Shown here in pieces: positions 24,857-25,692 of a DNA stretch of 64,000 bases (position 1 is the first letter of the stretch; each line of letters starts with the position of its first letter). The notes below the pieces were generated by a model. The model ran no database searches and was not told the DNA's origin. It worked only from the letters and a program-made list of their open reading frames with translations. The translations under genes and the position numbers were made by a program. The DNA is taken from contig JAFLBX010000002.1 of NCBI GenBank assembly GCA_017303675.1, forward strand, positions 1,300,411 through 1,364,410, in the 5' to 3' direction. This stretch comes from Ignavibacteria bacterium (GTDB lineage Bacteria > Bacteroidota > Ignavibacteria > Tepidaquicellales > OLB5).

Positions 24857-24978
24857 TTTTGCGAGGAGAATTTGTACTGCAAATTCGGTGTGGTAATCTT
24901 TTTATAGTAAAGATAGGTTAATTTGTATTGGTAAATTGTCGTCTAGATTCTTCGCTCGCTTCGCTCACTCAGAATGAC
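24857..24978. repeat. Third bipartite palindromic unit
   Basis: Left arm 24861-24899, right arm GTCTAGATTCTTCGCTCGCTTCGCTCACTCAGAATGAC at 24941-24978. Confidence 0.8.
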
Positions 24979-25028
24979 AGAGATATTCCCGATTCAATCG
25001 GGATTGGTTTGAGTCGCTATTTTGGCAT

Positions 25029-25133
25029 AAAAAAAGGCAGGCACAAGTGCCTGCCTGAAAACTAGCCATCCCAATTATTCTAAAAATTCTTTGGGCTGCT
25101 AAACGAAGCTTTTGCGTAGTTTAGCGGAGAGGG
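25029..25133. repeat. Direct repeat copy 1 (tRNA 3' end + hairpin + terminator)
   Basis: About 6 mismatches over ~103 bp versus 25509-25611. Confidence 0.9.
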
Positions 25134-25193
25134 TTGACTGCGCTAAAGCTTCGTCAACCGGGGAGTTAATGAATTTCTTTATTTGAAATTTTA

Positions 25194-25472
25194 TCAGATT
25201 AAATCATTAGCATTGGGTTTCAATACAGGTTTCTGTAAAATCCTTTTAAACAATACGGCTTTTCCTGAACCTGTCTTGAAATATCTTTCTAGGTTTCTCG
25301 CCTGACTTTCAGTTTTTACTCCAATAAACGCCTCAAACTCGAAAGGTTTATAATGTTTCGTTGATTGAGCTAATCCTTCATTATGTTCCAGCAATCTTCT
25401 CTTTAAATTGTTGGTTGAACCAATATATCGAAAATTTGAATTTATACTCTTCAATATGTATACGTACCACAT
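25194..25472 (-). CDS. Small standalone GIY-YIG nuclease
   Basis: YVYIL...YIGST, RRLLEHN (Arg), LERYFK (Glu); 92 aa. Confidence 0.85.
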   Translation of the reverse strand: MWYVYILKSINSNFRYIGSTNNLKRRLLEHNEGLAQSTKHYKPFEFEAFIGVKTESQARNLERYFKTGSGKAVLFKRILQKPVLKPNANDLI

Positions 25473-25508
25473 AATTATTGGATTAATATTTTTTATATGT
25501 TTTAAAAT

Positions 25509-25611
25509 AAAAAGGCAGGCACAAGTGCCTGCCTAAAAACTAGCCATACCAATTATTCAAAAAATTGTTTGGCCTGCTAAACGAAGCTTTAGCGTAGTTT
25601 AGCGGAGAGGG
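25509..25611. repeat. Direct repeat copy 2, overlapping the tRNA-Ser 3' end
   Basis: AAAAAGGCAGGCACAAGTGCCTGCCT...GCTAAACGAAGCTTTAGCGTAGTTTAGCGGAGAGGG. Confidence 0.9.
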
Positions 25612-25692
25612 AGGGATTCGAACCCTCGATAGAGGTTAACCCCCTATGACGGTTTAGCAAACCGTTGGTTTGAGCCACTCACCCACCTCTCC
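25603..25692 (-). tRNA. tRNA-Ser(GCT), CCA not encoded
   Basis: GGAGAGG/CCTCTCC acceptor, ACGGT-TTGCTAA-ACCGT anticodon arm, long variable arm, GGTTCGAATCC. Confidence 0.95.

Follow-up and report, generated by a model that had tools for sequence, protein, structure and literature searches.

A GIY-YIG nuclease gene between conserved hairpins at the 3' end of tRNA-Ser: a candidate minimal selfish cassette in an Ignavibacteria genome

Introduction

What kind of element is a gene for a 92-amino-acid (aa) GIY-YIG nuclease that lies behind a transfer RNA (tRNA) gene, between two copies of a repeat beginning with the last bases of that same tRNA? The question is raised by a locus at positions ~24946-25692, on the minus strand, of a 64,000-nucleotide (nt) stretch of DNA from an Ignavibacteria genome (C2:1300411-1364410; hereafter, the window). 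The host genome consists of two contigs (C1 and C2), with 3.65 Mb and 38% GC. An earlier interpretation made from the DNA letters alone (hereafter, the sequence-only reading) had proposed a mobile unit of ~480 bp, bounded by the repeats, that spreads at tRNA ends and may expand and contract by recombination.

According to our results, the locus is best explained, with a probability of about 0.62, as one complete and the left-end stump of a second minimal selfish cassette lodging at tRNA-Ser 3' ends. The cassette has a size of ~480 bases and contains one GIY-YIG gene, two conserved hairpins and a copy of the last 10 bases of the tRNA. Its patchiness within the genus, its switching among tRNA-Ser isoacceptor genes, and the occurrence of tandem and gutted copies together point to a selfish cassette that targets tRNA ends.

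Results

Organization of the locus

The features on which the argument rests, all on the minus strand of the window, are the following:

25602-25692, minus strand: tRNA-Ser(GCU) gene (ARAGORN), the sole gene of the genome with a GCU anticodon; CCA is not encoded
25496-25611, minus strand: tRNA-proximal copy of the direct repeat, running from the tRNA's last 10 nt through hairpin A1 and a spacer to terminator 1 (repeat search, alignment, BLAST)
25576-25603, minus strand: hairpin A1, GCTAAAC-TAC-GCT-AA-AGC-TTC-GTTTAGC, a structure supported by covariation
25513-25534, minus strand: terminator-like hairpin 1, AGGCAGGCACTTGTGCCTGCCT plus a T run, between the tRNA and the open reading frame (ORF) (terminator scan)
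25194-25472, minus strand, stop codon included: single-domain GIY-YIG nuclease gene, 92 aa (ORF with a match to PF01541)
25132-25159, minus strand: hairpin B, GGTTGAC-GAA-GCT-TT-AGC-GCA-GTCAACC (inverted-repeat search and covariation)
25124-25133, minus strand: distal copy of the tRNA 3' end (t3'), CCCTCTCCGC (sequence comparison)
25018-25133, minus strand: distal copy of the direct repeat, composed of the tRNA-end copy, hairpin A2 (25098-25125) and terminator 2 (25035-25056)

The order tRNA-Ser, repeat, GIY-YIG gene, repeat, already described in the sequence-only reading, was recovered by ARAGORN, repeat search, ORF prediction and Pfam. One repeat family was detected, with two copies of 116 nt (25018-25133 and 25496-25611), longer than the ~105 bp first given, which are 90% identical without gaps and lie 478 nt apart; by BLAST the identity is 94% over the first 103 nt, as originally estimated, and just these two copies exist in the 3.65-Mb genome. 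Both copies open with CCCTCTCCGC, the last 10 nt of the tRNA (25602-25611 and 25124-25133), also in line with that reading, and continue with a 28-nt hairpin and the terminator-like sequence AGGCAGGCAC-TT-GTGCCTGCCT and then a T run. In hairpin A1, the outer stem opens with the final two bases of tRNA-Ser(GCU). Between the ORF and the distal repeat, the hairpin core occurs a third time, inverted, in hairpin B: this core reads as the reverse complement of that of hairpin A, and hairpin B stands where a T-arm would precede the tRNA-end copy.

No recombinase or transposase domain was found with Pfam in any ORF of at least 120 aa between 14.7 and 34.2 kb of the window (~8-10 kb around the cassette), which bears out the lack of integrase and transposase noted before; all these ORFs match ordinary Pfam families (peptidase S49, BNR, DnaX, agmatinase, aspartyl protease, AraC and histidine kinases).

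Distribution of the cassette among close relatives

Forty genomes from the genus, family or order of the host carry 1-7 homologues of the window protein each. Of 33 homologue loci retrieved, 24 are found immediately 3' of a tRNA on the same strand (Ser, Pro, Asp, Cys, Arg, Met or Leu), 21 of these within 175 nt, and nearly all of the 24 then carry a partial tRNA copy with GC-rich hairpins. Since the stretches up to 175 nt past a tRNA, on the right strand, add up to ~0.1-0.2% of the window's genome, the association with tRNAs is far beyond chance; similar cassettes at other tRNAs had been expected if the unit spreads at tRNA ends, and the homologues are indeed strongly enriched on the 3' side of tRNAs and followed by a copy of the tRNA 3' end.

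At tRNA-Ser(gct), the cassette is present in just 3 of 16 same-genus species, namely the window's own genome (G000), G002 and G014. A clean tRNA-Ser(gct) followed by a terminator, i.e., an empty locus as the sequence-only reading had foreseen, was found in G004, G007 and G012, and hairpin A is absent from these empty loci and therefore belongs to the insert. The locus of G002 is syntenic with that of the window, with 79% identity for the protease and 89% for the agmatinase; G010, whose agmatinase is also 89% identical, is just as closely related, yet it has no cassette, and the cassette of G014 adjoins different neighbour genes. Repeat copies within one genome are 94-100% identical, though the terminators differ between G000 and G002, and this likeness therefore points to recent duplication or gene conversion.

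Other congeners carry ORF-less arrays of pseudo-tRNA-Ser with other hairpin types. Relics of three hairpin types accumulate at tRNA-Ser(gct) across the genus, and since these include hairpin types of other nuclease lineages, the gene is a recurrent landing site. The ORF-less loci of G010, G011, G015 and G003 (L044, L040, L048 and L046) consist of tandem pseudo-tRNA-Ser units of 147-190 bp, with a hairpin inserted in the T-loop (TCCCRAAGGGA plus CTCCTTCGGAGG) or replacing a strand of the anticodon stem. Outside the genus, a precise empty site was sought for a cassette of simple form in a Fodinibius salsisoli isolate, and its flanking DNA found no match in 26 congeners, because the species representatives are too diverged.

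The tRNA-Ser lineage across phyla

A wide scan with one genome per species provided 80 loci, using a 3-sequence profile that is biased towards the tRNA-Ser lineage. Among the closest homologues, the best 48 of the 80 loci (54-80% identical), 42 lie directly behind a tRNA-Ser gene with anticodon gct, gga, tga or cga, and 3 of the 6 exceptions are cut by contig ends. The 48 belong to at least 10 phyla (Ignavibacteriota, Bacteroidota, Balneolota, Omnitrophota, Chloroflexota, Acidobacteriota, Planctomycetota, Armatimonadota and several groups of the Candidate Phyla Radiation, CPR). The window protein is 72% identical to a copy from Chitinophagaceae, and 75-80% identical to the same-genus copies.

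In the protein tree, the tRNA-Ser-linked proteins form a supported clade (Shimodaira-Hasegawa-like approximate likelihood ratio test, SH-aLRT, 97). The linked tRNA type changes 19 times on the tree, against 29.5 with shuffled labels (minimum 26), and phylum changes 24 times against 48; given this clustering by phylum, descent has been largely vertical within phyla. The anticodon of the linked tRNA-Ser changes at least 13 times, and thus the unit has moved repeatedly between non-allelic tRNA-Ser genes. More generally, a small GIY-YIG ORF beside an intact tRNA with a hairpin-remodelled partial copy recurs at many tRNAs in many phyla. Some more distant loci of Elusimicrobiota and CPR (L115, L132-L135, L137 and L141) display a mirror-image layout, with the ORF just upstream of a same-strand tRNA, mostly tRNA-Gln.

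Common architecture and conserved hairpins

The usual order among members is tRNA, hairpin A, short spacer, ORF, hairpin B, t3' and host flank; in most of them, the final codons and the TAG stop of the ORF lie inside hairpin B. At 26 loci, an exact copy of at least 12 nt of the tRNA end (usually 12-18 nt, range 12-20) stands right after hairpin B, and it starts at the boundary between T-loop and T-stem. We thus define the unit as hairpin A, spacer or terminator, a bare GIY-YIG gene coding for 80-92 aa, hairpin B and a t3' of 10-20 nt; accordingly, the tRNA-end part of the original proposal stood, with its 3' enrichment, and the boundaries were revised, the ends of the unit being the inverted hairpins A and B and not the ~105-bp repeats. 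A distal hairpin A is seen chiefly at loci with a second unit behind the first, in many cases a truncated one (L073, L074, L085), and the most plausible reading of the 116-nt repeat of the window is therefore t3' joined to the left end of a gutted unit, i.e., most simply, t3', hairpin A and terminator from a decayed second tandem unit. Recombination between similar terminators would yield such a repeat.

Both hairpins display covariation. For hairpin B, 90.9% of the cells are paired across 23 loci, 8 of 10 pairs are changed on both sides, none of 500 shuffles scored as high, and every shifted register is far worse; for hairpin A, 97.5% of the cells are paired across 16 loci and 33 cells are changed on both sides, again with 0 of 500 shuffles as high. 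The stems covary and the internal-loop bases are nearly invariant (TAC/TTC in A, GAA/GTA in B), as would be expected for a site of protein contact.

The 5' arm of hairpin A always begins inside the tRNA, 2 nt from its end where CCA is missing and 4 nt where CCA is encoded. CCA is encoded in 2 of the 43 tRNA genes of the window's genome. In two Ignavibacteriaceae metagenome-assembled genomes (L069 and L070), the proximal tRNA-Ser end encodes CCA, which is used in the stem of hairpin A, and the distal copy has no CCA; this pattern hints that the cassette supplies a new tRNA 3' end, like an integrating element.

Homologues elsewhere in the host genome

A tblastn search revealed four homologues in the host genome, including the window copy, all of them at a distance of 7-318 nt on the 3' side of a tRNA with the same orientation (Pro-cgg twice, Met, and Ser-gct), each then followed by a remodelled copy of the 3' part of its own tRNA. 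At tRNA-Pro(cgg) (C1:328451-329010), 1.5 GIY-YIG cassettes lie in tandem, the second with an internal deletion, and each unit ends in a pseudo-tRNA in which the 17-nt anticodon arm has been exactly replaced by the 21-nt hairpin TCCCGACACTACGTGTCGGGA. The ORF start lies here 1-7 nt past the tRNA, and the stop codon falls in the D-loop part of the pseudo-tRNA. At tRNA-Met (C2:725536-725950), a terminator is followed by a GIY-YIG ORF of 82 aa and by GGAGGTTCGA-TCCGCCGCGGCGGA-CTTCCCCCGCTAC, which corresponds to the T-arm and 3' end of tRNA-Met split by the palindrome CCGCCGCGGCGG. At tRNA-Gln(ctg) (C1:1800454-1801020), six tandem 111-bp units of pseudo-tRNA plus terminator with a TCCCGACAC...GTGTCGGGA arm have no ORF; they could be non-autonomous derivatives. 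In these units, the anticodon arm is exactly replaced by TCCCGACACnnnGTGTCGGGA.

Further, 8 of the 9 genome copies of TCCCGA...TCGGGA hairpins are within 650 nt of a tRNA, all of these on its 3' side, and exact copies of 12-nt tRNA 3' ends occur downstream of 3 of 43 tRNAs (besides the 10-nt copy at Ser-gct) and upstream of none of the 43. Pfam identified 12 GIY-YIG domains in the genome, two in proteins of ~600 aa (UvrC-sized) and six in small genes away from tRNAs, of 97-120 aa (C2:193254, C2:1092293, C2:449079, C2:965929, C1:477097 and C1:2049103). These six are 41-59% identical to one another, and 27-45% identical to the window protein over partial length (expect values, E, 1e-5 to 6e-4). 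Hairpin repeats are visible on both sides of five of them, and the gene at C2:193254 is bracketed by matches to the published pattern of the Ssn-related motif (SRM), e.g. TGTCATACCCGCGAATGCGGGTATCCAG. With Ssn-like paralogues and tRNA-linked cassettes both present, the genome therefore holds both layouts.

The GIY-YIG protein

The window protein matches PF01541 with 64.7 bits (cut-off 22.6; E = 9e-18), the single Pfam domain in its 92 aa. In a 25-sequence alignment, Y5, Y16, G18, R26, H30 and E62 are invariant and N31 nearly so, which agrees with the intact Tyr, Arg and Glu motifs reported earlier. Its AlphaFold model (predicted local distance difference test, pLDDT, 86.8) is confident over residues 1-80, with residues 82-92 of low confidence, and displays strands at 2-9, 15-20 and 44-52 and helices at 23-31 and 55-65, in the beta-beta-alpha-beta-alpha arrangement of the GIY-YIG fold. 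The top fold matches in the PDB were Slx1, the UPF0213 protein BH0048 and the plant protein HIGLE (TM-score on the query 0.54-0.66, Foldseek probability 1.00), with E ~2e-3 for Slx1/UPF0213 versus ~0.2 for the I-TevI catalytic domain; a PDB sequence search gave the same ranking, its best matches being weak. The group-I-intron endonuclease model TIGR01453 reached 25.9 bits against a cut-off of 56, covering residues 4-40. Neither Pfam nor the model revealed a second domain or a DNA-binding domain. The homing-endonuclease identity implied in the sequence-only reading is thus not upheld for this bare catalytic domain; judged from its predicted fold, the protein is closest to Slx1/UPF0213 and not a classical homing endonuclease, and it resembles the Ssn single-strand nucleases in size and hairpin context.

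Among three Ignavibacteria orthologues, the ratio of nonsynonymous to synonymous substitution rates (dN/dS) is 0.05-0.07 with saturated synonymous sites, indicating strong purifying selection. In two studies, four metatranscriptome runs gave contigs over 25187-25465, of low depth, with 0-1 differences and possible DNA carry-over, and one RNA contig spans the tRNA and stops at terminator 1 (25509); the ORF is apparently transcribed.

Discussion

Weighing the cassette against other explanations

Two simpler accounts were discarded. Chance or an assembly artefact was rejected since the structure recurs in independent assemblies and studies, and a plain tandem duplication of a host segment was rejected as the full explanation, as the empty loci of congeners have no hairpin A and the unit recurs across phyla.

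Several observations weigh against a selfish cassette. Within the species, neither an excision product, nor a circle, a collapsed repeat or an empty allele was seen, and the contigs from four sludge metagenomes have the cassette without exception, at 2-3 differences; two runs of raw reads were also searched, from which the organism was absent. The sole joint in the contigs that skips the cassette, from 25013 to 25602, has depth 5, a 29-nt side and 88% likeness, below the threshold of reliability. The excised circles and collapsed repeats that might have been expected are hence missing from the contigs, and the idea of expansion and contraction by recombination is borne out by the tandem and truncated copies of the family, not by a collapsed repeat. 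Saturated synonymous sites and clustering by phylum indicate that residence has been long and largely vertical, with transfers rare or old, and strong purifying selection would be expected just as much of a gene that benefits the host. As hydrolases, GIY-YIG enzymes cut DNA but are unable to reseal it, and any insertion thus depends on host functions. Furthermore, the ORF of the window copy ends 35 nt before hairpin B and is parted from the tRNA by a terminator, a derived state in which the copy is possibly immobile, and the segments used for the covariation of hairpins A and B were chosen with a pairing filter.

One rival explanation is a domesticated host gene, i.e., a vertically inherited, tRNA-linked housekeeping or protective nuclease (e.g., one processing structures at heavily transcribed tRNA genes, or guarding a tRNA attachment site), whose repeats came from local duplication and gene conversion and not from mobility. 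Such a gene would agree with a dN/dS of ~0.05 and saturated synonymous sites, with the cassette in every sampled population of the species, with the phylum-level signal in the protein tree, with the synteny with G002, and with the apparent transcription of the ORF. However, it is hard to reconcile with the presence of the cassette in 3 of 16 congeners at tRNA-Ser(gct), equally close G010 being without it, with the switching among four tRNA-Ser isoacceptor genes, with tandem, truncated and ORF-less relics, with several unrelated nuclease lineages with different hairpins heaped at the same tRNA, and with proteins 60-72% identical in other phyla as compared to 75-80% within the genus; we consider it unlikely. 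A gene that is fixed and syntenic, without empty alleles and without enrichment next to tRNAs or repeats, the outcome that would have spoken against the original proposal, is not what was observed, because of the enrichment at tRNAs, the same-genus empty loci and the tandem and truncated copies.

A free-standing homing endonuclease of the SegB type would make double-strand breaks in cassette-free tRNA-Ser alleles and spread by allelic recombination after DNA uptake, the hairpins being incidental or transcription signals. The weak match of the first half of the protein to TIGR01453 (25.9 bits) leans in this direction, and so does the proximal terminator of G014, which looks donor-derived with the distal one host-derived, as under co-conversion; besides, the GIY-YIG enzyme SegB of phage T4 cuts in a tRNA gene cluster (PMC2330249). 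Against this, the 92-aa protein is without a DNA-binding domain and far below the 56-bit cut-off of that model, its fold matches Slx1/UPF0213 (E ~2e-3) much better than I-TevI (~0.2), and allelic homing would not suffice for moves between non-allelic isoacceptor genes; moreover, the hairpins are conserved with covariation across phyla and are therefore functional parts. We regard this explanation as improbable. Still less probable, to the point of being remote, is that the repeats are left and right attachment-site scars (attL/attR) of a decayed tyrosine-recombinase island, or that the unit is mobilised in trans by an integrase elsewhere. Integrase sites in tRNA genes are classically recognised by a direct repeat of the tRNA 3' end that begins where the T-loop meets the T-stem, and such a repeat is seen here; yet no integrase lies within ~8-10 kb, dozens of loci in no fewer than 10 phyla share the minimal size and order, often at 4-50 nt from the tRNA, hairpins and nuclease co-vary as a set, and ORF-less tandem units of 111-147 bp are unlike integrase scars.

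Proposed mechanism

Taking the locus as a selfish cassette at tRNA-Ser, we infer the nuclease substrate, the cut site, the repair route and whatever present activity the window copy has. Hairpin B plus t3' may imitate the T-arm and the acceptor 3' strand of a tRNA, and hairpin A may clamp the tRNA terminus. Given the likeness of the protein to structure-specific nucleases and the cutting of single-stranded DNA (ssDNA) by Ssn, cutting is proposed at hairpin-plus-t3' junctions in ssDNA: a structure-guided nuclease would recognise these junctions, probably in ssDNA arising from replication or heavy tRNA transcription, and would nick or cut there. Host repair would then copy from, or anneal with, a cassette-bearing template through the t3' homology, leaving the unit behind an intact tRNA. 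Every insertion would remake the target, which would explain tandem arrays and ORF-less derivatives, and recombination between repeats would trim the arrays, a process from which the 116-nt repeat of the window would have resulted.

A bolder interpretation, which we advance only tentatively and hold to be somewhat doubtful, is that these are previously unrecognised minimal autonomous DNA elements of ~0.3-0.5 kb, with a structure-guided GIY-YIG nuclease of 80-92 aa as their sole protein and inverted hairpins as their ends, moving through ssDNA in a manner resembling peel-and-paste, with joining by the host and no transposase or integrase. One hairpin end would pair with the tRNA 3' terminus, and the other would replace the T-arm before the carried copy of the target. 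Lineages would be specialised per tRNA identity, the tRNA-Ser lineage on all four isoacceptors in at least 10 phyla, and ORF-less units of pseudo-tRNA and hairpin, such as the six at tRNA-Gln(ctg), would be its non-autonomous derivatives.

Relation to known systems

No published description of tRNA-linked small GIY-YIG cassettes was found in full-text literature searches. The closest systems are Ssn in function, T4 SegB in setting and IS200/IS605 in logic. In the Ssn family (SsnA of Neisseria meningitidis; cd10448), a hairpin and its neighbouring bases direct ssDNA cleavage (PMC11893778; Chenal et al., 2025). Ssn proteins are likewise single-domain GIY-YIG proteins, of ~90-100 aa (~90-150 aa for the family at large, a range that includes the 92 aa of the window protein), and their genes lie between short inverted repeats that form hairpins and evolve in concert with the protein (PMC11893778). 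Conversely, hairpins A and B fall outside the published SRM pattern and are confined to the locus, not dispersed over the genome: the pattern has 30 matches in the genome, none of them at the cassette, and A1, B and A2 are of a different sequence class. The window cassette is, in addition, joined to the end of a tRNA gene and carries a copy of that end; the Ssn paper (PMC11893778) mentions tRNA nowhere.

SegB of T4 and other free-standing GIY-YIG homing endonucleases (PMC2330249; PMC13096335) share with the cassette a nuclease gene among or beside tRNAs and selfish spread by cutting and repair. They differ in being phage-encoded, at least ~200 aa long, equipped with a DNA-binding domain and active on duplex DNA, with neither hairpin ends nor a tRNA-end copy, whereas the window protein has 92 aa and a chromosomal gene. 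Slx1, the UPF0213 proteins (YhbQ, BH0048, EF2693) and HIGLE provide the best fold matches of the window protein and its best, albeit weak, PDB sequence matches. In eukaryotes, Slx1 acts on branched DNA together with Slx4 and a RING domain; to our knowledge, the UPF0213 proteins of bacteria are uncharacterised and have no known linkage to tRNA genes.

The IS200/IS605 peel-and-paste elements, together with repetitive extragenic palindromes and their associated tyrosine transposases (REP/RAYT), offer an analogy for the mechanism suggested here, with subterminal hairpins, action on single strands, insertion 3' of a short target, no true target duplication and non-autonomous hairpin derivatives. 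However, their tyrosine (HUH) transposase both cuts and rejoins, and the cassette has none, its GIY-YIG hydrolase being unable to rejoin. As for integrase-borne tRNA islands, these also target the tRNA 3' end, rebuild an intact tRNA and leave a direct repeat of the tRNA end, as is the case in the window, but the window has no integrase, the unit measures ~0.3-0.5 kb rather than kilobases, and its ends are structured hairpins.

If the unit moves in the way proposed, it would be among the smallest self-contained mobile elements of bacteria, a nuclease of less than 100 residues and DNA structure taking the place of a transposase. Much of the clutter of pseudo-tRNAs, GC-rich hairpins and tandem repeats behind bacterial tRNA genes would be explained, and part of the large pool of uncharacterised small GIY-YIG proteins would gain a natural role. 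The hairpin-plus-tRNA-end motif constitutes a precise biochemical prediction, and the tRNA-Ser lineage supplies proteins together with their matching sites from many phyla, material of the sort through which the Ssn nucleases became useful as ssDNA tools. For annotation, it is relevant that the intact tRNA, the pseudo-tRNA pieces and the ORF of 80-92 aa are readily mis-called or missed.

Other features around the cassette

Two further features lie downstream of the distal repeat:

24980-25017, minus strand: older pseudo-tRNA-Ser relic, a D-loop copy CTCAAACCAA (25004-25013) followed by the palindromic hairpin TCCCGATTGAATCGGGA (24987-25003)
24946-24978, minus strand: dispersed hairpin repeat GTCATTCTGAG...GAAGAATC, with 15 genome copies, outside the cassette proper

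The hairpin TCCCGATTGAATCGGGA occupies the place of the 5' strand of the anticodon stem, and the relic is common to most species of the genus. The dispersed repeat GTCATTCTGAG...GAAGAATC is also found beside another small GIY-YIG gene (C2:1092293). Over the copy in the window, the depth of metagenome contigs increases 5-10-fold, and the repeat is therefore widespread in the community; as a whole (GTCATTCTGAGTGAGCGAAGCGAGCGAAGAATC), it holds mini-hairpin motifs of the GCGAAGC type. Finally, a second tRNA-Met gene (C2:882653-882727) is preceded, at a distance of 48 nt, by a 12-nt copy of its own 5' end, which may have been left by a cassette on the 5' side.

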